A stretch of 60,956 bases of DNA from Clostridia bacterium (GCA_017936585.1 JAGBFI010000039.1:1-60956), one strand, 5' to 3'; shown: positions 3,001 through 47,150, counted from the stretch's first letter. Notes: generated from the letters alone by a model not told the origin. Program-made: numbers and translations.

Positions 3001-6000
3001 GACTTGTGTGCTGCCATTATACCAACCATCAAACACATAGCCATCTCTTGTTGCAAGAGGAGCGATTGTTGTTTCGGCATCTCTGCTTGCATAAATGTTT
3101 TTGCTGTCAAATTCGATGTAAATCTTGTTGTTTGTGATGGTATTCAAAGGATAAATTGTTGGAGTTGTTGTGCCGGTTCCTTTATTTGCATCCAAAGTCA
3201 CTTCAACCTTATTTGCAGTCCAGTTTGCAATAAATTTTCTGTGACCCATGCTGTTTGCAGGAAGCACTGTCATAAGGTCACTCGCATAAAGCAATTCATA
3301 TTCATAATTAAACCAAGAATTATGAATTACGTATGAGGCTTCCTCGTTGATATATTCTCCAGCTTCCTCAGGTTTACCTGAAAATACTCCCACTTGAGTT
3401 CCATCTTCATCAAAGAAGTAAATTCCAGAGATATCCATAAAAATATCACTTTCTGGTTTTGTATATGTCACACCTTTTCTGACTGTATATGTTTTTGAAG
3501 TAAAGCCAGCTGTGTCATAGATTTCAAACAAATCAAATACATCGGTCATTCCTTGGTACCAAGAATCTGCTGTGTAAACAAGAGCTTCAGTCCAACCAGC
3601 AAATGTGTAGCCGGTCTTTCCTGTTGCTGTTGGAAGATTTTTCGCTGCAGAGCCATATGTGTAAGTTTCGTCAGCGATTGCTGTTCCGCCTTGAGTGTCA
3701 TATGTGATTGTGTAAGTTTCTGGTGTCCAAACAGCCTTCAATGTCACGGTGCCATAACTGCCTTTTGCAAGAGTTGTATAAGTTTGAGTTGAAGACCATG
3801 TTCCCACAGCGGCTGTTGCTGTTGATTGCCAGCCTGAAAGCATATATCCATTTCTTCTTACATCATTCCAGCCAAGAAGTGTTCCTTCTGATTCAACATC
3901 ATAGATTCTCACAAGATGAGCATAGGCATCTTCTTCGCCATAATTTCTTCCCGTGTATTCACCGATAGATTCATCAATTTGATATGTGATTGTGTAACCA
4001 ACCTTGTTGTAATAGATTGTTACAACGAGACTGCCATCTCCAGCCACTTTAAGGCTGTTTGACTTGTTTGTTTCAAAAGACTTATATTCTCTTCCATAAA
4101 GTTGACTTGCAGGAATAAGAGCTTTCAAATCTTCGATTTTCAAAGTTGTGTCTGTGACAGCCTTTGTACCTGTGATGGTGCTTGCATCGCTGTAAGAACT
4201 TCCATCGATATCTCCGATTTGCAAACGATATTGAAGAGTATATGCAACTTCGTGTGCTGTTGCATTTGATTTAACATAATAGATGTTTGTTGTGTTGCTG
4301 AGGACATCTCCGTCTGCTTCTGACAATCCAAAAAGAGCCGCATTCATTGTGAATGTGTATGTGATGGTGTTGTCAGTTGAGTTTACAGTCTCACCAACTT
4401 GGGTTGTTGGATTCACTGAAGTTCCAGCTGTCCACTTGCCAAGTGTGTAGCCCGCTTTTGGAGCAGCCACAACCGTCACTGAAGAGCCGTATTCAACAGA
4501 AGTTGTTCCACTTGTTGTGTAATTTATTCCATTAATTTTGATGCTGTTGATTCCTGTGCCAACTGCGTAGTTGAGTGTGTAAGAAAGTTTTGACCAGTGA
4601 GCATACAAATCGAGTGTGGATTGTGCATACTTCCAAATAACTTCACTACTATCGTTCTTTGCAAGATAAAGCACGTTTCCGTTGTTTTCATCAACAAGTT
4701 TTTCCGCAAAATTTGAAACAACTGAACCATCAGCATTAAACACTTTCACACCGGCACCTTGTTCTTTTGTGAAGAAACCTTCAAATTTGTAACCTGTTCT
4801 CCAAGCTACGTCTGTGCCAACAGCTGCAGGAGTTCCGCTGATTTGAGAAATCTTTCCAACAGTTGCATCATATGTTGCAGTGTGAGACGAAGGTCCAAAA
4901 CCATTTTCGATGACAAGAGTAATTGTGATATTTGTTGTCACTGGAGTCCATACGGCTTCCAAAGTCACATCGTCATACAATGGTCCTGCAACTGAGCCAG
5001 AACGTGGAGTTGTTTTCATCGCAAGCCAAGTTGCGTTGTTGCCGTTGTAAGAGTCAGCCACTTTCCATTGCAATGTGTAACCAGTCTTAATCACTTGAGT
5101 TGAATCGTACAGAGAAACATTGGCATCAGTGATGTCATATTTTTCCGTTCCTGTCACTCCCTCAAAGTGAGCAGTGTTGTCAATTGAGTATGTGATTGTG
5201 TATTCATGAACATTCCATTGTGCAAAGAGAGTGATTGTTGCTGATACGTCATGTACCCAAGCACCGCCAACAACCCAACCATTTGTCGTGTTTGCAACGA
5301 ACGCACCTGTTGATATTGAAATTTGAACCCCGCTTGAAGCCGCAGTAAACAAACCTTGGAAATCATAACCAAGTCTTGTGAACACTAAGCTTGCAGTTGC
5401 TGTTCCTGTCTTGCCAGCATAAATCTTGTCGCTGTCATATTCAAAATAAACTGTTGCATTTGATGCCGTTGCCCCATTTGCATCATAAAGATTGCCAATT
5501 GAAACCGCATATCTTTCAGCGGTCCACTTTGCATAGAGGTTGTGATTGCTTGCAGTTGAAACAACTGTGTCCGCAGTCACCTTTGTTGTGCAAGAAGCAT
5601 CTTTATACCATCCACCAAATGTGTAACCAACTCTTGTTGCTTCAGCTTCTGCAACTGAACCATAAGTGTTGTCATAAGTCACTGATGTTGGATTTGGAGT
5701 TGGAAGAGTGACAGAATCAGTTGTGTTTGCAACATATGTCACATTGTATGTTCCTTGTGTCCAAACAGCATACAAGGTTGTTGAAGCTTCAGCACGTGTC
5801 CATGCTTTTGAAGCATTTGTGTAGCCAGCAACGCTTGCAATGAATGCACCTTTTGAATCAATAACTTTCACTGTTCCGTTCTTGCCAGTTGCCCATCCGC
5901 CAAACACATATCCAGTCTTTGTTGGAGTTGGAACCGTTCCTGTGATTGTTGAGCTGTCATAGGTTGCAGTCACAGAAGCAGTTGTTTCTGTTGCATTGCC

Positions 6001-9000
6001 TTGATTATAGTTCAAAGTGATTGCAAACTTGTTAGCTTGCCATTTTGAAACCAAAGTTTGTCCATCAGCCGCATTCAAAGTCCAGTTTGAAACAAGCACG
6101 CCGCTTGCATTGATGACTTGAGTGCTGCCGTTATACCAGCCAAGGAATGTGTAAGCCTCAGCACTATTGTCAACATCAATTGCTGTTGCTGTTGGCTTGA
6201 TAACTGAACCGCTGCCCGCATATGGATAAGCACTTCCTGTTCTCTTTTCATATATATTCTTAGTATTATAAGTAATGTAAACTTTATTATAATCAGCGCT
6301 TGCTGTTGCTGTGCCGTAGCCAGTCAAAGACAAGTTCACTTCAACAGTGTTTGCCGTCCATTGAGCGACAAGTGTTACATCCCCATATTTGTTTTGAACA
6401 GAAGTTCCTCCAGCGTATGTTGTTGCCGCAGCCCAGTTTCCAGCATCTGCAGAAGGCTTCCACCCCATGAATGTGTAACCGGTTCTTGTGATGTTTGCAG
6501 CAACTGGAAGAGTTGTTGTGTCTGTGATGACATAGCCTGTTGTTGGAGCAAATCCAGAAACCCAGCTTCCGCTGTTTGTGTTGAATGTGATTGTGTAAGA
6601 AAGCTCCTTCCAAACCGCATAGAGGTTTGCACCAACCGTTGTGCTTGCAAGCACTGTCGAAGAAGAGACGAGGATAGAGTTATCAACAGTCTCTGTTGAC
6701 TTATAAACTTTTCCGTGTTGAACCGTTGTCCAACCAATGAAAGTATATCCATTTGCCGCAGCAACAGGAAGAGTCCCGTATACTGTGTCAAAATCGATTG
6801 ATTTTTTCAAAGATGTTGTGTATGAAACGTCTCCAATCGTCACGCTTCCAGCATCTGACCAACCTGCTTTGTCAGACCAAGTTGCGTTTGCAACCCCAGT
6901 GTCTTTGTGAGCAAAGATGTCATATTTGTTTGCGTTCCATTTTGCATAGAGCGTTTTGTTTTCAGTGTATGTCCAACTTGAAGCCGCAGATCCATTTGCC
7001 TTGATAACAAGTTGATCATAACTCACAACTTCAGTTCCATCCAAAGTCACTGTATACCAACCATCAAAAGTGTAACCTTCTCTTGTTGCAACAGGCGTTG
7101 CCGCATTTGAAAGGACATCATTTGTGTTTGTTGAATAAAGTGCCATTCCATCAAAGTAAATATACAAAGGAGTTGTTCCGCTTGTAAGTTCTCCCCCATT
7201 TACATTGAGTGTGATGGTGTAAATTTCTTTTTTCCAGTTTGCGTAGAGGTTCAAAGTTGCTGTTGAATCATCATATGTTGAAAGTGAAGAGTTCAAAACT
7301 GTTGTTGCCAAAACAAGAGTTCCACTTCCATTTTCGCCCGTTCTCCAACCAGTGAAACTATACCCTTCTCTTGTTGCAGTTGCAGCAAAAGAACCAATTG
7401 CTTTTCCGTATGTTTTTGTTTCGCTTGTTGGATTGATTGTTGGAGTTGTTGATCCTGTTGGAGTTCCAACAAGGTATTTCACAGTAACTGTTTTTGCTTG
7501 CCAAACAGCATAGAGTTTTCCTGTTTTGTTTGCATCGCTATAATCGCCAACTGTTACGTTTGTCAATTTTGTTGAAGCTGTCACATTGCTTGCTGTTGCA
7601 CTTGCGCTTGTTGCCCAGCCAAGGAAGTTGTATCCCACACGACTTGCTGTCATAAGAGTGCCATAAGCTGTGTCATAAACAACATTTTGTGTTGTGCCTG
7701 TTGTGATTGTCACACTGTCAGAGCCTGCGTTTGCGACATATGTCACCGTGATTGTGTTTGCCGTCCAGTGAGCATACAAGGTTCCATTCTTTCCAGATTC
7801 GCTGTAATTTCCGATTGTTGAACTTGTCAAAACTGTTGTTGTTGAAACTTTTGTTCCGCCACTTGCAGCTGTATACCAACCATTGAATGTGTAGCCTGTT
7901 CTTGATGCTGTTGCCAATGTCCCATAAGCCACGCCATAAGTCTTGCTTGCTGTTGTTGGAGAAACTGATGGAGTTGAAGAACCTGTGCCTGCATTTGCAT
8001 TGTATGTCACTTTGATTGTGTTTGCACCCCATTGAGCATACAAGGTTCCTGTAAGATTTGCGTGATCAATATTTCCAACTGTGTTCGCATTGAATGTTGT
8101 TGCATTTGAAACCTTTGTTCCGCCGCTTGCAGCTGTGTACCAACCGCTGAATGTATATCCAGTTTTTGTTGTTGTTGGAAGTGAAGAATAAACCGCATCA
8201 TAATTCACTTTGATTGAGTTTGCTGCGCTTCCGCCGTTTTCCTCAAAAGAAATTGTGTATGTGTTTGGTGTGAATTTTGCATAGATTGTTCCCACCATAC
8301 TTCCATCTTCAGCCCACGTTGCACCATTTGCATCGAACACTGAAGAGTTTGCAGTCAATTTTGTTGAAAATGCAGAATCTGCATACCAGCCATTGAAAGT
8401 ATATCCTGTTTTTGTGATGTCAGGCAAATCTGTTGATGTGTAAGTTGTTGCAAAAGTCTTACTCTTGTCAGCAACTGTTGTTCCGCCATTTTCTTGATAA
8501 GTCAAAGTCACGCCACTTGTTTTTGCTGTCCATGCTGAATACAAAGTCAAAGATGTTCCCGAAAGGTCACGTTGCCAAACAGGACTGCTTCCTGATGTTG
8601 TGTATCCAGAGAGATAAACATACTTTCCGCTTGTGTTGATAACAGTGTCAGTACCCCCCTTAGTCACTGTCCAACCTGCAAAGTTATAACCAAATCTTGT
8701 TGGAGTTGGGATTGTTCCTGTGATTGTTGCGCTGTCATATGTAACCTTAACTGTTGCAGAACCACTCACGTCAGCATCAGCATAATTCAAAATCACATTG
8801 TAAGTTTCAGCAGACAATACTGCGTTCATATCTACATGTCCATATATTCCTGTCAAAATTGAGCCAGCAGCGTGTGTACTGTCAACAGTCCAATTATAAT
8901 CACTGCCCATTGGTGAAGCAACCCAATGCACAAGTTGATACCCTTCTACTGATGCAGATTCTATAGTAATCTTATCTTCAATATCATATTCATAGGCGGC

Positions 9001-11913: not shown

Positions 11914-11983
11914 AAAAACCTCATCTTTAATTTTTCTGAACTGCCAACCTGTGACAGACCACAGAATTTTATCGTTCGCATAT

Positions 11984-12012
11984 ATTTTAATATATTAGGC
12001 AAAAAATGTCAA
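11984..12012 (-). promoter_or_regulatory. sigma-70-type promoter of the giant gene
   Basis: rc reads TTGACA, 17 nt, TAAAAT, about 70 nt upstream of the ATG. Confidence 0.55.
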
Positions 12013-34231: not shown

Positions 34232-36283
34232 TTATAACTTTTCAGCCACATCCCAAGCACGCCAAACAACTGTTCTTAAGCTGCCAACAGAAAGGGCGTC
34301 TCCAACAATATGAATGTTCTTTGATTCTTTACAAAGTGGAGCTGGGTTATATCCCACAGCCACAATCACATTGTCACACTTAATTCTCTTTGTTGTTCCA
34401 TCCTTAAGTTCCACTATTACAGTTTTGTTTGTGATTTCCTTGCACTTGCTTTCAAGATAAACAGGAACCTTGTTTGTTTTAAAGAAATCACGGAGATATG
34501 AAGTGTTCATAAGTGGAAGCTTTGGAGAAGCCATAATGTCATTCATACTTTCAATGATGATTGGATTTTTTCCTTTAAGGAAAAGGTCATATGCAATTTC
34601 ACAACCACTTTGTCCGCCACCAATCACAACAACATTTTCCCCAACCTCTTTGCCGTTCAAATAGTCCACTGCTTCTATTGATTTCTCAAAGCCCTTGATT
34701 GGAAGTTTCTTTGCAACTGCCCCTGTTGCAATGACAATTTCGTCAGCATCCAAACTCTTCACATCTGTGATTTCTGTGTTAAACTTAACTTCAATTCCAA
34801 GGTTTTTGATTTGTCTGCGATACCATTCAATAAGTTTCTTGTCCGCATCCTTAAAATCTGGCGCAGCCGCTGCAATAAAGACCCCGCCAAGTTTGTCTGC
34901 CTTCTCATAAATTGTGACTTTGTGACCACGAAGAGTTGCAACGCGAGCAACTTCCATTCCTCCAACGCCGCCGCCAACAACAGCTATTTTCTTTTGTTTC
35001 TTGGCAGGTTTGAGGTCGTGTTTTCCGCCATCCATTGTCATTGGGTTAAGTGCACAGCGAGACATATGTATTGAATCCGCCATCGCACAAGCATTTGCAA
35101 CACCTTTATAGTGTGACATGCAAAGGCACGCGTTGTGACAGTGAATGCAAGGTTGAATATCCTCACATCTGCCCTCCATCAGTTTTGTCACCCATTGATT
35201 GTCAACCAAGAACTGTCTTGCCACACCCATTCCGTCAATTTTTCCTGCTTTGATTGCTTTTGCAGCAGTTGCAGGATCCATTTTTCCAGCACACACAACA
35301 GGAATATCAACAAATTTTCTGATGTGAGAAACATCTTCCAAATTGCAGTTGTTTGGCATATATTGCGGTGGATGAGCCCAATACCAAGCGTCATATGTTC
35401 CATTGTCCGCGTTGAGCATGTCATAGCCAGCCTCTTGGAGATATTTTGCCGCTTTTTCACTTTCTTTCATGTCGCGGCCAACCTCAACAAATTTTTCTCC
35501 AGGCATTGCTCCTTCACAGAAGCCTTTTGTCTTGCTGACAACTGAATATCTCACAGAAACTGGATAATCCTCGCCGCACGCAGCTTTGATTGCTTTGACA
35601 ATATCAACAGCAAAGCGATAACGGTTTTCAAAACTTCCGCCATATTCATCCGTACGCTTGTTTGTGTATCCTGTTGTAAACTGGTCAATCAAATAACCTT
35701 CGTGAACGGCGTGAATTTCAACACCATCAACGCCAGCTTCTTTGCATTTTAATGCAGTTTTTGCATATGCTTCAACAATTTTGTTGATTTGTTTCTTTGT
35801 GATTTCTGGGCACATAACCCCTTCCGCCCAACGAGAAGGAAGTTTGCTTGGAGAAGCACAAAGATATTGAACATCAAAAATTGGCTTCACAATTTTTCCA
35901 AGAAATTTGTTTTTAAGCATTGGAACCAGCGCATTTGGAATTGAGAAACTTCTTCCAAACCCCGCTGTAAGCTGCACAAAAAGTTTTGCCCCAGTTTTGT
36001 GGAATTCTTCCATATATGGTTTCAATTTTTTGAAGGCCCCGTCTGCCTTGTAAAGCCATTGTCCACCCATCATGTTTTTCAGTGGAGCAATTCCAGTAAT
36101 CAAAAGGCCAGTGTTGTTTTTTGCAATTTGCATGAAAAAGTCTGCTGCATCTTCGTCAAAGTGATGCTTTTCCATCCATCCAAACAAAGATGTTCCACCC
36201 ATTGGACACAAAACAATTCTGTTTTTGATTTCCAATTTTCCGATTTTCCAAGGTGTGAAAAGCGGTTCAAATTTCTTATCCAT
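34232..36283 (-). CDS. OYE-type FMN oxidoreductase fused to an FAD/NAD(P)-binding domain (2,4-dienoyl-CoA / enoate reductase-like)
   Basis: The N-terminus KIGKLEIKNRIVLCPMGG is typical of Oxidored_FMN. A Cys cluster CIHCHNACLC...C sits in the middle, with the dinucleotide fold VVGGGVGGME. Start at MDKKFEP. Confidence 0.8.
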   Translation of the reverse strand: MDKKFEPLFTPWKIGKLEIKNRIVLCPMGGTSLFGWMEKHHFDEDAADFFMQIAKNNTGLLITGIAPLKNMMGGQWLYKADGAFKKLKPYMEEFHKTGAKLFVQLTAGFGRSFSIPNALVPMLKNKFLGKIVKPIFDVQYLCASPSKLPSRWAEGVMCPEITKKQINKIVEAYAKTALKCKEAGVDGVEIHAVHEGYLIDQFTTGYTNKRTDEYGGSFENRYRFAVDIVKAIKAACGEDYPVSVRYSVVSKTKGFCEGAMPGEKFVEVGRDMKESEKAAKYLQEAGYDMLNADNGTYDAWYWAHPPQYMPNNCNLEDVSHIRKFVDIPVVCAGKMDPATAAKAIKAGKIDGMGVARQFLVDNQWVTKLMEGRCEDIQPCIHCHNACLCMSHYKGVANACAMADSIHMSRCALNPMTMDGGKHDLKPAKKQKKIAVVGGGVGGMEVARVATLRGHKVTIYEKADKLGGVFIAAAAPDFKDADKKLIEWYRRQIKNLGIEVKFNTEITDVKSLDADEIVIATGAVAKKLPIKGFEKSIEAVDYLNGKEVGENVVVIGGGQSGCEIAYDLFLKGKNPIIIESMNDIMASPKLPLMNTSYLRDFFKTNKVPVYLESKCKEITNKTVIVELKDGTTKRIKCDNVIVAVGYNPAPLCKESKNIHIVGDALSVGSLRTVVWRAWDVAEKL

Positions 36284-36454
36284 ATTTCCTCCTAAGCACA
36301 TAATAAATTTTTATATAAATATTTTAAGTTTTCCACAAAAGAAATGTCAAGTAAGTTTCGACATTTGTTCTGAATTTTTGAGATATTTTTCTTTCAGTTT
36401 TCATCTATTGAAAAATTCTTTGAAACTTTAATATACTTTGTTTAATGTTTTATT

Positions 36455-37268: not shown

Positions 37269-38585
37269 TTAATTATCTTTTCTTCTGTAATCAACTTCAA
37301 TTACATTTTTGTCTTTTTGTTTTTTCGCGTCAGCTGCAAGCCATTTCTTTACAACCCATGTTGTGAGTGGTGTCACAAGCAACATAATAAGTTGTCCGAC
37401 AATCAAATAAACCGCAAACAAACTTGTGTACATAAATGTAAAAATTCCGATGATAAGTGGCATGACAATGTACATTGCCCAAGATTTCTTTTGAGGGTTT
37501 GTGCCTTGTTTCATAAGTTTGTTTGAAAGCCATGTTGACAAAAATGAAGTCAAAACAGCAATGATTGTGAGAATGTAATATCCGTTCACGCCAAGGGAAT
37601 CTGTGTCAATTCCGGCAACAACGTTATCAAAAATCTTTCCTTCATAGTCATTTTCTGTTTCTTCAGTTTTTTCTTCTTCAGTGTAGAAATTTCCAAGATA
37701 GCCTTTGATTTCATCTTTTGTGAAAAGTGGACTTGTTGGAGATTCTGCCTTATAAACATTTTTTATCCACAAGAAACCTTCTTGAGTGTCTGTGTAATAA
37801 TCTTTCGCTGTCCTTTCTGCGAATGCTTTGAAAACATCATTGAGTCCCGTGTCAGTCACAGCCAAACTTTGAATTTCTCCGCCCTCTTCGCCTTCTTCAG
37901 CAGCCTGCTCAACGAAGGTTGAAATTATGTTGTAAATTTCCTCATTTGAAAGCTCATCTTCGTATGCAACTGAATAGTCTTTTGTCTCTCCGCCTTCTTC
38001 TGAAACATAAATTGTCATGTTTTTATTTTCGAAGTCAATTTCTGCTTCAAGTGAATATGTTTTTCCAGACATCTCTGTTTTCAAATAGTTTTGCAATGCT
38101 GTTTTTCCTGTGTCTGTTGAATCAACCTCATTCAAATTGATAATGTTCACATACACTTCTTTCATGTTTTGATATTGTGAAGCAATATTGAAGTTTGACA
38201 CAGCTTGAAGGGAATTCCACAATGTCAAGAAGACTGTAAATTGCAATACCATCATAATCAACATTGGAAAACAACTTCCCATCACGTTGAATTGATATTT
38301 TTTGTACACTTCATTCACTTTTTGTTGATAAAGTGCTTGGTCATGACCATATTTTGCTTTGATTGCATCAAGTTCCGGCTGCATTTTTGCGGTGACTTGC
38401 CCACTTTTCATTGTCACTTTCTTGTTTACGATGTCAACAAGCGAAAACAAAACTCTGACTATAAGTGAAATCAAAATCACAGCAACAATGTAAGTTCCTG
38501 TTGCTCCCTTGAAAGCATTTAAGATGGATTCCCAAAAGCCGGTGGGTTGAGACAAACTGACAAGCGCAGTGCTTATAAAATCCAT
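37269..38585 (-). CDS. yidC: membrane protein insertase YidC with a ~190-aa acidic insertion
   Basis: TM1, then the coiled C1 loop (KMQPELDAIKAKYG...EVYKKY), then TM2 (CFPMLIMMVLQFTVF), then a long acidic segment, then the C-terminal TM bundle. Sits at the canonical yidD-rnpA-rpmH position. Confidence 0.85.
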   Translation of the reverse strand: MDFISTALVSLSQPTGFWESILNAFKGATGTYIVAVILISLIVRVLFSLVDIVNKKVTMKSGQVTAKMQPELDAIKAKYGHDQALYQQKVNEVYKKYQFNVMGSCFPMLIMMVLQFTVFLTLWNSLQAVSNFNIASQYQNMKEVYVNIINLNEVDSTDTGKTALQNYLKTEMSGKTYSLEAEIDFENKNMTIYVSEEGGETKDYSVAYEDELSNEEIYNIISTFVEQAAEEGEEGGEIQSLAVTDTGLNDVFKAFAERTAKDYYTDTQEGFLWIKNVYKAESPTSPLFTKDEIKGYLGNFYTEEEKTEETENDYEGKIFDNVVAGIDTDSLGVNGYYILTIIAVLTSFLSTWLSNKLMKQGTNPQKKSWAMYIVMPLIIGIFTFMYTSLFAVYLIVGQLIMLLVTPLTTWVVKKWLAADAKKQKDKNVIEVDYRRKDN

Positions 38586-38845
38586 AGATTATCTCCTTTA
38601 ATGTTTATTGGAACAGGGTCATACCCTCTTTTCTTCTGCCATGGAACACACCTGAACAATCTTTTTGTTCCTATCCAAAAACCTTTGAAAACACCAAATT
38701 CTTCAACAGCTTTAATCATATAATTCGAACACGATGGTTCAAAAATGCAACTGTGAGGAAGAAACGGTGAAATGCAATATTTGTAGACATAAACTGGAAA
38801 CAAAAAAATTTTCTTAATTATTTTTCTTTTTTTCATATTTTTCAA
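38573..38845 (-). CDS. yidD: membrane protein insertion efficiency factor YidD
   Basis: YKYCISPFLPHSCIFEPSCSNYMIKAVEEFG signature. Confidence 0.85.
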   Translation of the reverse strand: MKNMKKRKIIKKIFLFPVYVYKYCISPFLPHSCIFEPSCSNYMIKAVEEFGVFKGFWIGTKRLFRCVPWQKKRGYDPVPINIKGDNLWIL

Positions 38846-39143
38846 AAATTCTTTTAAGTTCGTTTTTCAGTTGTTGAAATTCCAAATTGACAGAATTTTC
38901 TTTTGCAAGCAAAACATAATTACAAAAAGAAGGAATGTTCAGATTTTTGACAATTTCACGCATCCTTCTTTTCAATTTGTTTCTTTTGTTTGCCTTTCCA
39001 AGTTTTTTGCTTATCGAAAAACCAATCTTATAACTTTGATATTTGCTCTTCACAACAAAAAGAGTGAAGTTTTCGGTGTGAACCCTTTCACCCTTCTTGT
39101 AGATATAGTTAAATTGATTGTTTTTTCTGAGTCTGTGGTCCAT
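38814..39143 (-). CDS. rnpA: ribonuclease P protein component
   Basis: 109 aa, basic, with LRKNNQFNYIYKKG near the N-terminus. Lies 8 nt downstream of rpmH. Confidence 0.88.
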   Translation of the reverse strand: MDHRLRKNNQFNYIYKKGERVHTENFTLFVVKSKYQSYKIGFSISKKLGKANKRNKLKRRMREIVKNLNIPSFCNYVLLAKENSVNLEFQQLKNELKRIFEKYEKKKNN

Positions 39144-39150
39144 AGGTCAC

Positions 39151-39285
39151 TCACGCAGCAATATTTTTTCTGCCTCTGTTTCTACGTCTTTTCAAAACGT
39201 TTCTTCCACCCTTAGTGCTCATTCTTTCACGGAAGCCATGAACCTTTTGTCTTTTTCTTTTCTTAGGTTGGTATGTTCTTTTCAT
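39151..39285 (-). CDS. rpmH: 50S ribosomal protein L34
   Basis: Not in the track because it is under 60 aa. Hand translation: [44 protein letters not shown]. Confidence 0.93.
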
Positions 39286-39395
39286 TTTTTTCTCCTTGCT
39301 TTGTTTTTATTTTTAAACTGTTTTCTCAAGTTGTTTTTTCTGGTAAATCTTTTGCATCCATAACTTCCAGCAAAACATAAGAAAGTTTACGCTTT

Positions 39396-39424
39396 ATTAT
39401 AATTTATAAAAAAACTTTTGTCAA
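39396..39424 (-). promoter_or_regulatory. rpmH operon promoter
   Basis: rc reads TTGACA, 17 nt, TATAAT (perfect consensus). Confidence 0.7.
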
Positions 39425-39747
39425 CCACTAGGGCTTGCATTTTTTCAAAAATAATACAACTTTATGTCAAAAAATTTCTTTCATTCAACCTTTCAAAAAA
39501 AATATCCTCAAAAATTTAACTTTTCTCTTTTGAAAAGGAAGAAAAAATTGCTTAAAAAAACACCAACTTTTCATTGATGTTTTTCTGATTTCATAGGTTT
39601 TGTTTTCTTTTCACCATATTTTGATGTCAGTTCTAAAATTTATTCAAAACTCTTAACTATTTCACTCTGTGTTTTCTTTTAATTCTCATCAGAAGTCAAT
39701 TCGAAGAGATTTTAAAATAAAACAGCACACAGTTCCCACAAGGAACC

Positions 39748-40848
39748 TTAGCCAATCATGCGAACTGGCAAAATCAAATAGAGGAATTCATCTCCTTCTA
39801 CAGGAACAATCACACATGGGTTTGCTGGAGCGTTGAAGCAAATTTTGACAAATTCTTCACTGTTTGCTTTAAGGTCTTCAATGAAATATCTTGCATTGAA
39901 AGCAATCAAAAGTTCTTTTCCTGTCATGTTGACTGGAACGTTTTCTTTGACATTTCCGAGTTCTGAATTTGATGTGATGCAAAGATTTTTCTCTTTAACT
40001 TCAAACTTCACACAATTTCCTTGCCCAACTTTTGAAAGAAGAGAAGCTCTTTCAAGTGCATCGTCAAACTGTTCTTTGTTAATCACACAAACTGTTTCGT
40101 AGTTTGCTGCAATGATTTGTTTATAATTCACAAAATCACCTTCAAGAAGGCTTGTTGTGAGTTTTGTGTCTCCAAAATCAACCATCAGCATTGATTTGTC
40201 AACATAAACATTGATAACTTCATCACTGTCATCAAGAAGTCTTGAAATTTCATTCAAACTTCTGGCTGGAATGACAATATTTGTTTGAAGATTTGATGAA
40301 ATGTTTTTCTTCACTTTTGCAAGACGATATCCATCAAGCGCGATGGCATTGATTTCGTTTCTGTCAATGTCGAAAAGCACACCTTTGAGAATTGGTCTGC
40401 TGTCATCAACTGCAACAGAGAAAATTGTTTTTGCAATGAGAGTTTTGAGATCTTTCTTTGAAATTCCAAAATATTCCATACTTTCAAGTTTTTTGAAACT
40501 TGGATATTCCAAAACATTGTAGCATTGAATCACTGTTTGGCTGTCGTCATATTTGATGCTCATTTGATTTTTTTCGTTGAGTTCAAGTTCAACCATTTCG
40601 TTTGTGAGTTTTTTGATGAATTCTGTGATGAATTTCCCAGGAACAACAGCTTCGCCTTCAACTTTGATGTTTGCTTTGATTTTTTTCTCGATTGAAAGTT
40701 CTGTGTCTGTGGCACTCAAGGTGAGTGTGTCATCTTCAGCGACAATTTTGATTCCTTCCAAAATTGGGTTTGTGATTTTGTTTGATATTGCTTTGCTTAC
40801 ACTGAGGAAAGCTTCGGAAAGTTCAATTCCATGACATGATACGATCAT
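39748..40848 (-). CDS. dnaN: DNA polymerase III beta sliding clamp
   Basis: 366 aa from MIVSCHGIELSEAFLSVSKAISNK, with an AAAGGAGAAAC RBS. It has its own TTGGCT, 18 nt, TGtTATAAT promoter. The track ORF extends to 40893. Confidence 0.92.
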   Translation of the reverse strand: MIVSCHGIELSEAFLSVSKAISNKITNPILEGIKIVAEDDTLTLSATDTELSIEKKIKANIKVEGEAVVPGKFITEFIKKLTNEMVELELNEKNQMSIKYDDSQTVIQCYNVLEYPSFKKLESMEYFGISKKDLKTLIAKTIFSVAVDDSRPILKGVLFDIDRNEINAIALDGYRLAKVKKNISSNLQTNIVIPARSLNEISRLLDDSDEVINVYVDKSMLMVDFGDTKLTTSLLEGDFVNYKQIIAANYETVCVINKEQFDDALERASLLSKVGQGNCVKFEVKEKNLCITSNSELGNVKENVPVNMTGKELLIAFNARYFIEDLKANSEEFVKICFNAPANPCVIVPVEGDEFLYLILPVRMIG

Positions 40849-40954
40849 TTTTGCGTTTCTCCTTTTTACGTTTTTATTATAACACATCTGCATTTAATAA
40901 GCCAACAAAAATGACAAAAATTTTTATTATCTTTTTCGCGGCGCCACTCACTTT

Positions 40955-41165
40955 AGGTTATTTATTTTATAAATTTATTTGAGTAATAATTGTAATAATA
41001 AGGGGTTGTGGAAATGTGTATAACTTTTTCGAAAATCTCAAAAACCGCAATAAGTTGTAAGAAGAAAGAGATGAAAAACACCACATATAGTGTTTTTAAA
41101 ATGTGGATAAGTGCGTGGATAAAAGAGACAAATTTATCCACACAAGTGATTTTTGTTGTGGATAA
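40955..41165. other. candidate oriC core: AT-rich tract, TAA-trio run, GC cluster and DnaA-box cluster
   Basis: DnaA boxes are TGTGGATAA (41102-41110), cGTGGATAA (41114-41122), TTATCCACA (41134-41142) and TGTGGATAA (41157-41165). There is also TAATAATTGTAATAATAA-GGGG-t-TGTGGAAAT at 40984-41015, preceded by an AT-rich tract at 40955-40983. Confidence 0.7.
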
Positions 41166-41191
41166 GTTTGTTGAAAAATGAAAAAAAGGTC

Positions 41192-41220
41192 TTGAAAAAT
41201 GGAATATTGTGTGATATAAT
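41192..41220 (+). promoter_or_regulatory. promoter of the origin-embedded orphan gene
   Basis: TTGAAA, 17 nt, TATAAT (with an upstream TGtGa), 27 nt downstream of the last DnaA box. Confidence 0.6.
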
Positions 41221-41244
41221 CATCTTACTTTAAGGAGAGAAAAA

Positions 41245-41904
41245 ATGATAAATCAAAATTTTTTGTTTAGAGTTGAAGAAATTTTAAAAAGAAGCAAAAA
41301 TATCAAAAAAGATGAGGAATCAATTGTGAAATATTTGAAAGAAACAGGAGACTCTTCTTTGTTTTTGATTGAAAATGAAGTTGAAGAAAGTGAAAAGCTT
41401 TCATTGTTTAAAATTGCACTCAAATATGATTTAGAGGAAGTTCTTTGTGAAGCAGTGGACGTTTGTCCAAAATTGTTTATGAATTCAGAGAAAATGAGTA
41501 TTGTTTTGAAAAAGCCATATTTCAAACTTTTCAAAAAATTTTCTGAAAGACCAGAATATTTGGAGGTTGAAAGCGAAATTTTGGGTTGGAACTATCTTTT
41601 TTATCTTGCAGAAGGAATTACTCCAGAAAATGAAAATGAAGTGAAATATATCATCAAAAAAGTTTTTGAAAAACATCCAGAACAAAAAAATAAAAAAGAC
41701 AAAAGTGGAGACACAATTTTTGACGTTATGGAATATGCAGGAATTTCTGGAAATTTGGAAGGTTCGATAAAAACAAAAACAGAAATGGAAAAAATTCTTC
41801 AAAGAAGAAAAGCCATTATCAGATTGAAGAAATTGTCAGACAAAAGAAAAAAAGAACAACTTAAAAGAAAATATGTTGAAGGAAGCAAAAAAACAAGAAT
41901 TTAA
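41245..41904 (+). CDS. orphan K/E-rich protein encoded between dnaA and the DnaA-box cluster
   Basis: 219 aa with an AAGGAGAG RBS. Has possible ankyrin-like segments (KDKSGDTIFDVMEYAG) and a strongly basic C-terminal tail (RRKAIIRLKKLSDKRKKEQLKRKY). Confidence 0.55.
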   Translation: MINQNFLFRVEEILKRSKNIKKDEESIVKYLKETGDSSLFLIENEVEESEKLSLFKIALKYDLEEVLCEAVDVCPKLFMNSEKMSIVLKKPYFKLFKKFSERPEYLEVESEILGWNYLFYLAEGITPENENEVKYIIKKVFEKHPEQKNKKDKSGDTIFDVMEYAGISGNLEGSIKTKTEMEKILQRRKAIIRLKKLSDKRKKEQLKRKYVEGSKKTRI

Positions 41905-41923
41905 TAAAAATTAAGAAAAATTA

Positions 41924-41955
41924 TAAAAAAATAGGAAAAAAATCCTATTTTTTTG
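41924..41955. terminator. bidirectional terminator between the orphan gene and dnaA
   Basis: A-run, ATAGGA, aaaaaa, TCCTAT, T-run. Confidence 0.55.
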
Positions 41956-41971
41956 TTAATTTTTTTCAATT

Positions 41972-43321
41972 TTATTGTTTTGTCAGCATGTTTCTGATTT
42001 CATTCACAAGGGTTTGAGTTTTCTTGTTGTGTTTCAAATCCTCTGTGATTTTGTCTCTTGAATGCATGATTGTTGTGTGGTCACGGCCACCAAAAAGTTT
42101 TCCAATGTTGACAAGTGGAAGATTTAAAATTTCACTTATAAGATATATTGCAATCATTCTTGGTTCAACAATTTCTTTGTTTTTCTTTTTGCCTGTGATG
42201 TCTTGATAGGAAATGTTGAAATAATCGCATACAACAGAAATAACTTTGTCAGGTGTGAGGTCGTTTTTGATTTCTTCCATATGGTTTGAGAAAATGTCTG
42301 TTACTTCTTCCATTGTGGCAACTTTTTTGCCTGAAAGTGTTGCAAGGAAATAAACCTCACTGAGTTTTCCTTCTAATTCTCTGATGTTTGTGTCAATGTG
42401 TTCGGCGATATAGTTTATTACTTCATCTTCTGCATAATATTTTTCCAACTGGCTTTTTTTGTGCAAAATTGCGATTCTTGTTTCAATGTCAGGTTGTTGA
42501 ATGTCATGAATAAGCCCGCTTGCAAAACGAGAGCGAAGTCTGTCTTCCAAAGTTGGAATGTCTTTTGGTGGACGGTCGGAGCAGATTATGACTTGCTTAT
42601 TTGCCAAAATAAGTTCGTTGAATGTGTGGAAAAATTCTTCTTGAGTTTCTTTTTTGTTTGAAATAAATTGAATGTCATCAACCATCAAAACATCGAGGTT
42701 GCGATATTTCCCGCGAAATTCCATGATTGACTTGTTTTTTGTTGGGGAATAAAGAGAAGCAATATAGTCATTTGTGAATTTGTCACAAGGAACATATTGA
42801 ATTTTAAGTTCTGGCGAAAATTCTCTGATGTAATTTCCGATTGAGTGCAAAAGGTGAGTTTTTCCAAGTCCAACGCCACCATATATAAAGAGAGGATTAT
42901 ATCTTTTTCCAGGGTGTTCGGCAACAGTGCGAGCTGCGGCATAAACAAATTGATTGCTTTTTCCCACAACAAAGTTGTCAAAAGTGAATTTTTCAACAAA
43001 AGGATTTTTTTCGTCCTTTGCCGAAACGTTTTTCTCTTCAACGCGATTGTTTTTGAGATATTCAATCTCTTCATTCTGGTCAAGAACAACAATTTTGAGT
43101 GGTTTTCCAACAATTTCAAAACAACATTCACTGATTTTGTCAATAAAGTTTCTCAAAATTTGATTTTTTGCAGAAACCGAAGGGGTTGCAATGACAAGAT
43201 TGTCTTTGTCGTCAATCTCAATTGGTTTGATTGGTTTAATCCAAAGCAGAAAAGAAACTGATGACACTCTAAGTTCCAATTTTTCCAAAACTTGTTGCCA
43301 TATAACCATAATATCTTTCAT
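41972..43321 (-). CDS. dnaA: chromosomal replication initiator DnaA
   Basis: 449 aa with Walker A GGVGLGKTHL, a sensor region, and the C-terminal box-binding helix GGRDHTTIMHSRDKI. Confidence 0.95.
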   Translation of the reverse strand: MKDIMVIWQQVLEKLELRVSSVSFLLWIKPIKPIEIDDKDNLVIATPSVSAKNQILRNFIDKISECCFEIVGKPLKIVVLDQNEEIEYLKNNRVEEKNVSAKDEKNPFVEKFTFDNFVVGKSNQFVYAAARTVAEHPGKRYNPLFIYGGVGLGKTHLLHSIGNYIREFSPELKIQYVPCDKFTNDYIASLYSPTKNKSIMEFRGKYRNLDVLMVDDIQFISNKKETQEEFFHTFNELILANKQVIICSDRPPKDIPTLEDRLRSRFASGLIHDIQQPDIETRIAILHKKSQLEKYYAEDEVINYIAEHIDTNIRELEGKLSEVYFLATLSGKKVATMEEVTDIFSNHMEEIKNDLTPDKVISVVCDYFNISYQDITGKKKNKEIVEPRMIAIYLISEILNLPLVNIGKLFGGRDHTTIMHSRDKITEDLKHNKKTQTLVNEIRNMLTKQ

Positions 43322-43366
43322 TTTTATCTCCTGTTTAGTCCTTAAAACTGTATATTTATCTAAAAA

Positions 43367-43429
43367 ATTTTAAACTATAAAAAATAAATTGTCAAGGAAT
43401 TTTGAAATAATTAAACTTTGTGGTAAACT
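43367..43429. promoter_or_regulatory. back-to-back dnaA and recF promoters
   Basis: For dnaA the rc reads TTGACA (43390-43395), 17 nt, TAAAAT (43367-43372). For recF: TTGAAA (43402-43407), 16 nt, TGgTAAACT (to 43429), only 7 nt before the ATG. No DnaA box with fewer than 2 mismatches in this 115-bp region. Confidence 0.5.
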
Positions 43430-43436
43430 AAAGGAT

Positions 43437-44576
43437 ATGAAAGTACAGTCTTTACAAATCAACAATTTCAGAAATTATAAAAATCTTTCATTGACCTTTG
43501 ACGACAAGGTGAATGTTTTTATTGGTAAGAACGCTCAGGGAAAGACAAATCTTCTTGAAAGCATCTTTTATTGTTGCCTTGGAAAGAGTTTCAAAACAAC
43601 AAAAGACAAAGATTTGATTCTCTGGGGAGAAGAAAAGTCAAAAATTCTTTTGACGGTGAATAAGAAATACAGAGACGTTAAAGTTGAAATCAACTTGAGC
43701 ACTCTCAGAAAAAAAAGTATCTCGCTTGACGATTTTCCAATCAAACGCATTGCAGAACTTATTGGTGAAGTGAATGTGGTGTTTTTCTCTCCGCAGGAAC
43801 TTAAACTTGTCAAAGAAAGTCCAGAAGAGAGAAGAAAGTTTATGGATATTGACTTGTGTCAAAACAACAAGAGATATTTCTATCAGCTTTCTCGCTATGA
43901 AAAAATTTTGGCAAATCGAAACAAACTTCTCAAATTCAGCAAAACCATTGAGTCTGTCAAAGAAACCATAGAAATCTGGGACAGGGCTCTTGTGGCAGCA
44001 GCAAAATTTCTTGCAACTGAAAGAGCCAAGTTTGTTGAGCAAATTGCTCCCTATTCTCAAAAGGCACACCATTTCATCAGCGGCGGAAAGGAAAATTTGA
44101 GGTTGAAATATAAATGTGGCTGCGGAGTTTCTTTGGATGAAAAGTTTGAAGAAAACATGGACAAACTTTTGAAGAAAAATCTTGAAAAGGACTATAAACT
44201 TGGTCACACAACCATAGGAGTTCACAGGGACGACATTGACATTTTTTTAAATGATGTTGAGGTGAAAAACTTTGGCTCTCAGGGACAACAAAGAACGGTC
44301 GCTCTCTCTTTGAAATTGGCCGAACTTGAAAACATGTTCAACTTGAATGGAGAATATCCAATTTTGCTTCTTGACGACGTGTTTTCTGAACTTGATGTTG
44401 AAAGACAAAGCAGACTTTTGAAATTTGTAGGTCGCACGCAGACATTCATCACTTGCACGGACGAGAAGAAAATTGATGGAACCCTTTTCAGCATTGTTGA
44501 TGGAACGGTCGTAAAAAAAGAAGAGAAAAAGATAAAAAATAATTCTTGCAAAGTAAGAAAAAATAGATTACAATAA
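43437..44576 (+). CDS. recF: DNA replication and repair protein RecF
   Basis: MKVQSLQINNFRNY N-terminus, Walker A GKNAQGKTNLLE, signature GSQGQQRT, and Walker B LLLDDV. The track ORF starts at TTG 43389. Confidence 0.9.
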   Translation: MKVQSLQINNFRNYKNLSLTFDDKVNVFIGKNAQGKTNLLESIFYCCLGKSFKTTKDKDLILWGEEKSKILLTVNKKYRDVKVEINLSTLRKKSISLDDFPIKRIAELIGEVNVVFFSPQELKLVKESPEERRKFMDIDLCQNNKRYFYQLSRYEKILANRNKLLKFSKTIESVKETIEIWDRALVAAAKFLATERAKFVEQIAPYSQKAHHFISGGKENLRLKYKCGCGVSLDEKFEENMDKLLKKNLEKDYKLGHTTIGVHRDDIDIFLNDVEVKNFGSQGQQRTVALSLKLAELENMFNLNGEYPILLLDDVFSELDVERQSRLLKFVGRTQTFITCTDEKKIDGTLFSIVDGTVVKKEEKKIKNNSCKVRKNRLQ

Positions 44577-44594
44577 AAGAAAAAGGAGAAAACA

Positions 44595-47150
44595 ATGGAA
44601 GTTTATTTTCTTTGGGGAAGCATTGCTCTTTTGGTGATTGCTTTGGGTCTTGGCTTTCTTGGCGGATTCGTCAAGGGATTGAAACGCTCAAGCCTTCACT
44701 TTTTGTTTGTGATTGCAAGTTTTGTTGTGGCGTTTTTTATAACAAAACCAATCTCTCAGGCGGTTTTGGGGTCAACAATCACGGCGGATGGAGTTGACTA
44801 CACAATCAGCGAATATATCGTGCATATGATTGGTGAAAGTTTTGATTTGTCAAACTATGCAACGGCTGAAAACTTTTTGGAGCAGTTGCCAAATGCGATT
44901 GTTTCACCAATTTTGTTTATTTTGCTGGCAATTGCAGTTTATGTTGTTTTTGAAATGATTTATCTGATTGTTTCAAGAATTTCTTTTGGCAAGAAAAAGG
45001 CAGATTTTGCAAAATCAAAGCCTCACAGAGTTTATGGTGGGCTTATTGGTCTTGTTGAAGGGTTTTTGTTCTTGTTTGTATTGTTTGCACCACTCACAGC
45101 TTTGACAAAAACATATCAAGAAATCTCAGCTCTTCCACCTGCAGAAACACAAGCATTGGCGGAAGATGATGGAAGATTAAAGACAGTTCCAGAGCTTTTA
45201 AATGAAATGATGCCGGCAGAGGTCAACGAAGCAATTACGGCTTACAACAACAGTTTGATTGGCAAGGTTTGCGGAGTTGGGGGACTTGACAAAGCACTTT
45301 TTGACGGACTTTCAAATTTTGAATTTGAAGGTGAGAACATCAATTTACGTGAAGAACTTGTTACCTTGACAACAACTTATGACAGTTTTGTGGAAGTTTA
45401 TAACAATGTAAACGAAAAAAATTATTTGGCGATTGATTTCACAGATCTTAAAGCAAACATTGAAAAATTCTTGAACAACGGAATTTTCAAAAAAGTTGTC
45501 AGCGAAACTGTGAAAGATTTTGTGACAAAGATTGATGTTGAAACAGAGGAACTTCCTCAGATTGTTGAAGACTTGGTTGTAGAAATTAAAGCAAAATTCT
45601 TGGATGAAAGTTTTGATGTTTATGAATATCTCAAAGCAGACATCCTTGCACTTGTGGATGCGGCGAGCGTGATTATTGACAGCGAAGTTTTGCAAGCCTA
45701 TGATGCACTTGAGGACAAGTCGTTTGTGGGAATTTTGGAACTTGTTGACGATCAAAGCGAAAAGGTTGAAAGTGCACTTACAAAGATTTTTGACATGAAC
45801 CTTGTGACAGACGGCTTCAAATCAATCACAACATTCCTTTCAGATTTTGTTGAAAAAGAATTTGAAAATGAGAAAGGTTTGGAAGTTGGATTGAATACAA
45901 ACATCACCGACAAAGACAAAATGGTTGATGATGTGTTGGCGGCACTTAGTTCATTTGTTTCACTCAATGACAAACTTGACATTTCAACTCTTATGGATGG
46001 TGGAGATGTGTTGGCGGTGATTTCAGAGGTTGAAGACCTTGGAGCCACACTTGACGAAGCTGGAGTAACCTTTGACAAACTTAACAATTTGGAACTTCTG
46101 ATTTTGACAAAAGAAGACCAAAGCAAAGTTTGTGTGTTTGAAAACATTTTGAAACTGTTTAATTTGGACATTTTGAAGGATGTGGATTCTTCGGGCAAGC
46201 AACGTTTTGCAAACTATATAGAGTTCTTCTCACACATCAAAACGCCAATTGTAAACGCAGACAAGATTGGACTTTTGGATTTCAACAAACCAGACTTCAA
46301 TTTTGACAACGTGCTTGACAGTCTTTTGGAAGAACTTAAAACTGACAAAACATTCCTCACAAACACAATTCTGCCATTCAAAGACATCACAGCTCTTGAT
46401 TTGAACAAACTTGTTTTTGACAAAGTTGTTGACGAAATTGAAAAAGAAGTTTCAATTGTCGATTTCAAAAATGTGACAACCGATTGGGAGACACAACTCA
46501 ACTTCTTGGGTGAAACACTCAACGCATTGAATGCTGGAAATGTTGAAGAAAAGACTTACATCAAATTTATGATTGGCGGCGGAGACATGGAAGTATTGCT
46601 TGACGCAATTGTGGCAGATGACAATTTGAAGAGCGTTTTGAATCCAGTGTTCAGCGCAAATATTTTTGACAATTTGATTTCACAAATTTTTGACAGCATT
46701 GACACAGAAATTGGTGACAATACGGGAGCAAAACCAAAAACAGACACAACCAATTTGAAAGTAACAAAAGATGTTGTGATTGCTGATATGGAAAAGATTT
46801 TGAAGATTGCAAACGAATCTGAAGAATTATCCTTCACACAAATTGGAAAGATTTTGGATGTTTTGAAAGCAAGCGCATATAACGACACAACAGACGATGA
46901 CGTAAATAATGGAACAAAAGACGGAGTGTTCAACAACATTTTTGCAAATCTGATTTGGTATTTGACAGGAGATGTCATCAACGATGCAACATACACAACA
47001 GCCCCTTGTGCATTTGCTGAAACAATCAAAGCAAAACTCGACCTTACGGGAGATGAATATTATTTCTATGCAAGCTATGAAACAGCCCTTGCTGAAGTGG
47101 ATGCAGAGATTGAAAAAATCAAACAAAACACACAAGTTGAAGCTAAATAA
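44595..47150 (+). CDS. CvpA-like membrane domain fused to a long acidic, helix-rich domain
   Basis: 851 aa. The first ~180 aa have four TM segments resembling the CvpA family. The remaining ~670 aa are D/E/L/F/N-rich with no motif I recognise. Confidence 0.5.
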   Translation: MEVYFLWGSIALLVIALGLGFLGGFVKGLKRSSLHFLFVIASFVVAFFITKPISQAVLGSTITADGVDYTISEYIVHMIGESFDLSNYATAENFLEQLPNAIVSPILFILLAIAVYVVFEMIYLIVSRISFGKKKADFAKSKPHRVYGGLIGLVEGFLFLFVLFAPLTALTKTYQEISALPPAETQALAEDDGRLKTVPELLNEMMPAEVNEAITAYNNSLIGKVCGVGGLDKALFDGLSNFEFEGENINLREELVTLTTTYDSFVEVYNNVNEKNYLAIDFTDLKANIEKFLNNGIFKKVVSETVKDFVTKIDVETEELPQIVEDLVVEIKAKFLDESFDVYEYLKADILALVDAASVIIDSEVLQAYDALEDKSFVGILELVDDQSEKVESALTKIFDMNLVTDGFKSITTFLSDFVEKEFENEKGLEVGLNTNITDKDKMVDDVLAALSSFVSLNDKLDISTLMDGGDVLAVISEVEDLGATLDEAGVTFDKLNNLELLILTKEDQSKVCVFENILKLFNLDILKDVDSSGKQRFANYIEFFSHIKTPIVNADKIGLLDFNKPDFNFDNVLDSLLEELKTDKTFLTNTILPFKDITALDLNKLVFDKVVDEIEKEVSIVDFKNVTTDWETQLNFLGETLNALNAGNVEEKTYIKFMIGGGDMEVLLDAIVADDNLKSVLNPVFSANIFDNLISQIFDSIDTEIGDNTGAKPKTDTTNLKVTKDVVIADMEKILKIANESEELSFTQIGKILDVLKASAYNDTTDDDVNNGTKDGVFNNIFANLIWYLTGDVINDATYTTAPCAFAETIKAKLDLTGDEYYFYASYETALAEVDAEIEKIKQNTQVEAK

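Follow-up and report, generated by a model that had tools for sequence, protein, structure and literature searches.

The 60,956-nucleotide contig of a Clostridia bacterium analysed here (GCA_017936585.1 JAGBFI010000039.1:1-60956; the whole stretch is called the window) very probably carries a chromosomal replication origin between rpmH and recF, at positions 39286-43436. Judged from its sequence motifs and gene context, this origin would be a canonical unit of the basal unwinding system (BUS) type, placed in a dnaA–oriC–dnaN cassette that is inverted throughout a clade of gut bacteria. The inversion covers the cassette as a whole, relative to the yidC–yidD–rnpA–rpmH flank on its left and the recF flank on its right.

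The open reading frame (ORF) map and family searches against Pfam and NCBIfam, in which DnaA, DnaN and RecF scored above the NCBIfam equivalog cut-offs, give the following order at 39151-44576: rpmH on the minus strand, a 462-bp spacer, dnaN (minus), a cluster of DnaA boxes, a gene of 219 codons that we call orf219 (plus), dnaA (minus) and recF (plus). The initial annotation, made from the sequence alone, had proposed this order and had described the dnaA–dnaN block as inverted relative to rpmH and recF, and both statements hold. The left flank consists of yidC (37269-38585), yidD, rnpA (38814-39143, RnpA family confirmed) and rpmH, which encodes ribosomal protein L34 (39151-39285; PF00468, E 3e-21), all on the minus strand, while the right flank is formed by recF (43437-44576; TIGR00611, 364.3 bits, cut-off 172). 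The dnaN gene (39748-40848) encodes a 366-aa sliding clamp with three Pfam beta-clamp domains (TIGR00663, 277.5 bits, cut-off 137.65); its frame is extensible to 40893, and the ATG at 40848 is favoured by the ribosome-binding site, the relatives and the TIGR00663 alignment. The 449-aa DnaA, encoded at 41972-43321, has domains I, III and IV (TIGR00362, 494.8 bits, cut-off 343.9, and Pfam). Since rpmH adjoins the 3' end of dnaN, and recF diverges from dnaA, the canonical rnpA–rpmH–dnaA–dnaN–recF cluster is not found here, nor in about 70 relatives.

The elements that point to an origin are concentrated in the 396-bp intergenic region between dnaN and orf219. The upstream box cluster (41102-41177) comprises three perfect TTATCCACA boxes, at 41102 (minus), 41134 (plus) and 41157 (minus), a box with a single mismatch, TTATCCACG, at 41114 (minus), and one with two mismatches at 41169 (minus). 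The box scan thereby recovered what the initial annotation had seen by eye, namely three perfect boxes and one single-mismatch box at 41102-41165, with all strong boxes on the dnaN side, and added a further single-mismatch box at 41015 (minus). Five boxes with at most one mismatch therefore fall within 151 bp, as compared with 0.057 predicted by the density across the window (Poisson P about 5e-9); no overall excess of boxes is seen when the entire window is counted (23 observed, 17 expected).

On the dnaN side of this cluster lies a tandem pair of boxes (41007-41023, minus strand), which is the best-conserved non-coding element at the locus. The upstream member, TTATACACA, has one mismatch and the other, ATTTCCACA, has two, and both point at an array of DnaA-trios, TTA TTA TTA CAA TTA TTA CTC on the minus strand (40981-41001), from which they are separated by the 5-nt G+C-rich spacer ACCCC (41002-41006, minus). 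Six of the seven triplets have a central T, which reads as 3'-NAN-5' on the complementary strand. The trios are followed by an AT-rich stretch, a candidate DNA-unwinding element (DUE), at about 40951-40980: the 31 bases from 40951 to 40981 contain only four G or C, and the 25-bp segment with the lowest G+C content in the intergenic region (4%) begins at 40958. A G+C-rich clamp, TGAGTGGCGCCGCGAAA on the minus strand (40934-40950), bounds this stretch, and beyond it stands the predicted dnaN promoter (TTGGCT-18-TATAAT with a TG extension, 40876-40905, minus), the -10 element of which is kept in the alignment of relatives. For a BUS, Pelliciari et al. 2021 (PMC8287927) require at least three DnaA-trios (3'-NAN-5') no more than 16 bp from a DnaA box, and, typically, tandem boxes of which the upstream one is closer to the consensus. 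In the window, the trios begin after 5 nt, the upstream box of the pair is the one nearer to the consensus, the pair is oriented towards the trios, an AT-rich region adjoins them, and the whole is located at the GC-skew switch beside dnaN. The combination of box cluster, trios and DUE downstream of dnaA also corresponds to an oriC2.

The same module is conserved in related organisms. The DnaA protein was scanned against one genome per GTDB species, which gave 448 relatives; the best 80 were kept, all of them metagenome-assembled genomes (MAGs) of uncultured gut Clostridia with a DnaA identity of 58-90%, and their gene order was established by tblastn with the proteins of the window. In 68 of 77 loci, the 17-mer TTATnCACATTTCCACA of the module precedes the dnaN start by 68-330 bp. 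When aligned, the module reads AAGTTATnCACATTTCCACA, three to five G+C-rich bases, TTA TTA nTA nTA nTA TTA, a run of more than 90% A/T and a block of the GCGCG type. Across 66 distinct loci, T recurs in steps of three bases beyond the boxes, with frequencies of 0.76, 0.83, 0.55, 0.55, 0.70 and 0.83, as opposed to values of 0.11-0.56 (in most cases below 0.4) at the intervening positions, and A/T exceeds 90% at the aligned AT-rich offsets. Such a three-base periodicity of T corresponds to 3'-NAT-5' on the complementary strand, which is the signature of DnaA-trios. The GCGCG-type block, on the dnaN side of the AT-rich stretch, is kept at the aligned position in most relatives, and may limit the extent of unwinding or serve as a protein-binding site.

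The distribution of boxes in these genomes follows the module. Every relative has two to eight boxes with at most one mismatch in its dnaA–dnaN intergenic region (200-800 bp), or about 10 per kb, as opposed to 0.3-0.6 per kb elsewhere. No such box was detected in the short (<500 bp) recF–dnaA intergenic region of any relative, and most relatives also lack them in the dnaN–rpmH interval. In the loci L074-L077, the module still stands beside dnaN even though dnaA is 3.6 kb away, indicating that the unwinding module travels with dnaN. More broadly, in L074-L079 (e.g. L075, 11477-14997), where rpmH lies beside dnaA, the dnaA–dnaN gap is about 3.6 kb and the box pair and trios are found 160-180 bp upstream of dnaN, so that the origin is uncoupled from dnaA. 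In two other relatives only, L031 (at 13438) and L033, a second TTATCCACATTTCCACA double box is present together with further perfect boxes in the dnaN–rpmH spacer; it could be left over from oriC1 or have been newly acquired.

Based on these elements, initiation could proceed as follows. DnaA-ATP would bind both the upstream cluster (41102-41177) and the tandem pair (41007-41023), and would then oligomerise over the 5-nt G+C spacer onto the trios at 40981-41001. The GC-clamped AT-rich stretch at about 40951-40980 would open as a consequence, just upstream of the dnaN promoter, and we infer that DnaA-dependent unwinding takes place at this predicted site. The dnaA gene would now be expressed from a compact, box-free promoter that stands back-to-back with that of recF.

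The inverted order, with recF divergent from dnaA and with dnaA, dnaN, rpmH, rnpA, yidD and yidC co-oriented, is present in about 70 of the 80 related species-level genomes, and only L073-L079, whose DnaA identity is 58-59%, retain rpmH divergent from dnaA. Several of the relatives are named Candidatus Caccovivens, a name borne by DnaA homologues at 81% and 89% identity, and a second search for DnaA homologues returned close relatives only, with an identity of at least 81%. Caccovivens is the GTDB genus UBA11517 of the family UBA1242, order Christensenellales (PMC8035907), and the host of the present locus is an uncultured gut Clostridium close to it. The inverted layout is lineage-typical and not unusual within the clade. 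The initial annotation had presented it as an atypical origin architecture, and had itself named a common order across the wider clade as an observation that would refute this; the description holds only relative to model Firmicutes. It does not suit the origin proper either, for the canonical box pair, trios and AT-rich unit lie directly upstream of dnaN, in the same internal order as in Bacillus subtilis and in the oriC2 of Clostridioides difficile. A BUS has been described in the former and inferred in the latter.

The position of the origin is also reflected in base composition and gene orientation. The cumulative GC skew across the window is V-shaped with its minimum at 40262, and the coding-strand bias flips in the same interval, as had been pointed out from the gene map. 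The context fits an origin region, with mnmG and mnmE on the minus strand of the left arm, and rsmH and the gene of a penicillin-binding protein on the plus strand of the right arm. Three observations, on the other hand, weigh against our interpretation. The skew minimum falls inside dnaN, about 750 bp leftward of the box pair, on a curve that stays flat between 39750 and 41000. The GC skew at third codon positions (GC3 skew) of dnaN is lagging-strand-like (-0.40 to -0.44), which would fit an origin to its left. A midpoint-rooted neighbour-joining tree of DnaA, built without an outgroup, nests the seven loci with the classical flank among the inverted ones, and so gives no clear polarity to the rearrangement. 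The first two of these would suit an origin in the rpmH–dnaN spacer (39.3-39.7 kb), a remnant of an ancestral origin on the rpmH side, in which case the box cluster at 41.1 kb would merely regulate dnaN or orf219, and both dnaN and dnaA would be transcribed head-on. This spacer (39286-39747, 462 bp) has a G+C content of just 26%, and the coding-strand GC3 skew of dnaN and dnaA, about -0.4 with strongly C-biased third positions where neighbouring genes are near 0, resembles that of lagging-strand genes of the left arm. However, the skew test loses its force in the relatives. In those with the classical flank, where dnaN is certainly co-directional, the mean GC3 skew is likewise negative (-0.20 for dnaN and -0.30 for dnaA), and the clade means (-0.17 and -0.20, respectively) are independent of genome arrangement. 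The signal therefore appears to be gene-specific codon usage, and we dropped it as a means of placing the origin to the left or right of dnaN. The skew minimum lies inside the dnaA–dnaN intergenic region in 15 of the relatives examined, and right of the dnaN start in only three of 38. Moreover, the spacer of the window contains no ORF, no box with fewer than two mismatches and, in an Rfam search of the whole window that gave zero matches at the gathering thresholds, no known RNA. Its length varies from 104 to 3072 bp in the relatives, and its conservation is limited to the promoter of rpmH (predicted TTGACA-17-TATAAT, 12/12, 39396-39424, minus strand), with blastn matches at spacer positions 92-143 only, whereas box pair, trios and AT-rich stretch are conserved upstream of dnaN instead. 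We consider an origin in the spacer very improbable.

Given that the window derives from a metagenome assembly, the inverted order could in principle stem from faulty assembly, or the segment could switch reversibly between two orientations by site-specific inversion, and the initial annotation had asked for the junctions to be checked. No support was found for either, and the chance that one of them applies is negligible. The order recurs in about 70 independent MAGs, and the identical locus, orf219 included, stands on contigs from four samples and two assembly collections. The interval 38980-44600 is contained, with one mismatch, in a single 6720-nt Logan contig, and the rpmH–dnaN, dnaN–orf219–dnaA and dnaA–recF junctions are spanned by three overlapping contigs of a second run, which excludes a misassembly. 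As for an invertible switch, which calls for flanking inverted repeats and both orientations, a repeat search at the breakpoints gave only AT-rich low-complexity matches, and support for alternative junctions was no longer than 20-28 nt, with a single orientation in the contigs of all runs that hold the locus. A less remote but still unlikely alternative is that the origin is functionally bipartite, with low-affinity or non-consensus DnaA sites by the dnaA promoter or in the rpmH–dnaN spacer cooperating with the cluster and autoregulating dnaA, like oriC1 in B. subtilis and C. difficile. In its favour, C. difficile oriC2 alone gave no unwinding in vitro (PMC7561715), L031 and L033 have two perfect boxes in the dnaN–rpmH spacer, the double-box 17-mer included, and two sites with two mismatches occur in the dnaA–recF region of the window. 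These last are at background density (4.15 per kb), as are those of the spacer, and the 115-bp dnaA–recF region has no box with fewer than two mismatches, as the initial annotation had noted for both intervals; the short recF–dnaA regions of all relatives agree. The conserved sequence in this region is fully explained by two predicted back-to-back promoters, that of dnaA (TTGACA-17-TAAAAT, 43367-43395, minus), which is strongly conserved in relatives and contains no box with fewer than two mismatches, and that of recF (TTGAAA-16-TAAACT with a TG extension, 43402-43429, plus), and no room is left for DnaA boxes. Even in the relatives with the classical flank, the interval between rpmH and dnaA holds just 0-2 boxes.

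The preferred reading, a BUS-type origin upstream of dnaN within an inverted cassette, has several consequences. The inverted segment spans the origin, and the orientation of each gene relative to the forks is therefore unchanged: dnaN reads away from the origin, co-directionally with the leftward fork, rpmH and recF are also still co-directional with their forks, and dnaA points at the unwinding site, just as it does in the canonical layout. The initial annotation had pointed out that dnaA would be transcribed head-on to the rightward fork; this is not a result of the inversion, because wherever a Firmicute origin unwinds between dnaA and dnaN, transcription of dnaA runs towards the unwinding site. 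The canonical dnaA is thus already head-on to one fork, and its orientation here creates no new conflict. On a circular chromosome, inverting the 3.6-kb cassette is by geometry equivalent to inverting the whole remainder, which makes the event an origin-symmetric inversion. Origin-spanning symmetric inversions are the favoured class in comparisons of prokaryote genomes (PMC5850607; bioRxiv 10.1101/2022.02.15.480581). As no gene changes its orientation relative to the forks, the inversion should be close to neutral, and it has become fixed in this large clade.

The clade is without an oriC1-type box cluster upstream of dnaA. Since the relatives that keep the classical flank have so few boxes between rpmH and dnaA, the reduction of oriC1 may predate the inversion. 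The box-free dnaA promoter would also be consistent with a loss of box-mediated dnaA autoregulation, in line with the initial annotation. With regard to the neighbouring promoter, 7 nt separate the -10 hexamer of recF (TAAACT, 43424-43429) from the ATG at 43437, and no well-spaced Shine-Dalgarno sequence is present, a geometry kept in most relatives (aligned loci L001-L070), which suggests that the recF mRNA may be leaderless; the -35 hexamers of the two promoters are 6 bp apart. We tentatively propose, at somewhat less than even odds, that this family-level clade (UBA1242, Caccovivens-like) may have dispensed with both oriC1 and box-mediated dnaA autoregulation, and might operate an oriC2-only origin with a minimal, box-free dnaA promoter back-to-back with a probably leaderless recF promoter. 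If so, oriC1–oriC2 looping and classical autoregulation would be non-essential in a natural Firmicute lineage. In a less likely extension of this idea, the slot between dnaA and the boxes would recruit lineage-specific genes whose promoters come under DnaA control.

In the present organism this slot is occupied by orf219 (41245-41904, plus strand, 27% G+C), which has a Shine-Dalgarno sequence and is co-directional with the rightward fork. Its predicted promoter, a strong one (TTGAAA-17-TATAAT with a TG extension, 41192-41220, plus), lies at a distance of 27 bp from the last perfect box and is directed away from the unwinding site. Between the convergent orf219 and dnaA lies an AT-rich hairpin with runs of A and T on either side (ATAGGA-A7-TCCTAT, 41928-41952), which is likely a bidirectional terminator shared by the two genes. 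The product of orf219 matched no Pfam (E <0.001) or NCBIfam family, a word-indexed search among 5.8e9 proteins returned only the protein itself, and the gene is absent from all 80 related loci. An exhaustive phmmer search of 1.8e9 representatives gave only weak matches, repeat by repeat, to two giant proteins, of which one has ankyrin repeats; the match to this 2017-aa protein (E 1.2e-6) spans 35 residues. The AlphaFold2 model is all-helical, with a predicted local distance difference test score of 66, and its top Foldseek matches in the PDB are ankyrin-like and not significant (E at least 0.23). The C-terminal helix is rich in Lys and Arg. We read orf219 as a real, species-specific ORFan for a small helical-repeat protein, weakly ankyrin-like. 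It is a later insertion between the dnaA terminator and the box cluster, unique to this organism, and it accounts for the 1.1-kb separation of dnaA and dnaN. The initial annotation had included this split by an antisense gene in the unusual architecture; the split is present, but it is due to the ORFan, the relatives having 200-800 bp. Other genes occupy the same slot elsewhere: L031 and L033 have an ORF for a predicted membrane protein of 78-79 aa (L031, 10084-10323) in the same orientation as orf219, and L074-L079 have pth and a gene for a 731-aa SurA_N-like protein on the opposite strand. All of these inserted genes point away from the unwinding site.

Some features of the surroundings deserve mention. 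Downstream of recF, in the place of the gyrB of the classical cluster, stands a plus-strand gene (44595-47150) whose 851-aa product has a CvpA (Colicin V production) membrane domain at its N terminus. A CvpA-domain gene 3' of recF is kept in many relatives, with 31-44% identity, and is split into two gene calls in one assembly of the same organism (L081). At the left end of the window, positions 1-11994 (minus strand) form a stop-free frame of at least 3998 aa that runs off the end and contains 15 Listeria-Bacteroides repeats (Flg_new, PF09479), presumably a giant surface protein. A perfect DnaA box lies within yidC (37763), and two single-mismatch boxes (36276-36337) are found near the 5' end of an OYE-like / Pyr_redox gene (34232-36301), one inside the coding start and one upstream of it; this mild enrichment could reflect a DnaA-regulated promoter or chance.

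The rnpA–rpmH–dnaA–dnaN–recF order is a common Firmicute landmark for origin finders and annotators, and it is rearranged in a group of uncultured gut Clostridia that is both large and common. For this clade, the tandem boxes and trios upstream of dnaN are a better guide to the origin than the rpmH–dnaA junction. The clade is also a natural setting in which to ask if Firmicutes can do without oriC1 and box-mediated autoregulation of dnaA. Otherwise, the locus represents a presumably neutral origin-symmetric micro-inversion with one ORFan insertion, which helps annotation and introduces no new mechanism.

The closest known counterpart is the oriC of B. subtilis, where incC, with the BUS formed by DnaA boxes 6 and 7, DnaA-trios and an AT-rich DUE, lies between dnaA and dnaN (PMC6669920, PMC8287927). 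Both origins share the order dnaA, boxes, tandem pair, G+C spacer, trios of the 3'-[A/G]AT-5' type, AT-rich stretch and dnaN; in both, the upstream box of the pair is nearer to the consensus and dnaA reads towards the unwinding site. The present origin differs in that dnaA has no incA/incB (oriC1) cluster upstream of it, the orientation of the cassette with respect to rpmH and recF is reversed, an ORFan stands between dnaA and the boxes, and the trios are mostly AAT rather than GAT. In C. difficile and other clostridia, unwinding takes place in oriC2, directly downstream of the trios; an oriC1 with 9-19 boxes was present in all clostridia analysed, and in vitro the C. difficile origin required the two halves together (PMC7561715). 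The present origin resembles the C. difficile oriC2 in location and in composition (five to nine boxes, trios in an array and a DUE immediately after them), whereas its clade lacks oriC1 and the rnpA–rpmH–dnaA linkage is broken. Other origins in which, as here, a single box cluster and the unwinding site lie between dnaA and dnaN keep the rpmH–dnaA–dnaN–recF orientation, and differ in box consensus and number. With respect to the rearrangement itself, the inversion is like other origin-symmetric inversions (PMC5850607; bioRxiv 10.1101/2022.02.15.480581) in having one breakpoint in each replichore and in preserving gene orientation relative to replication. Unlike those described, it has breakpoints without visible repeats, it is extremely small, at about 3.6 kb with two genes and oriC, and it is fixed over a family-level clade.

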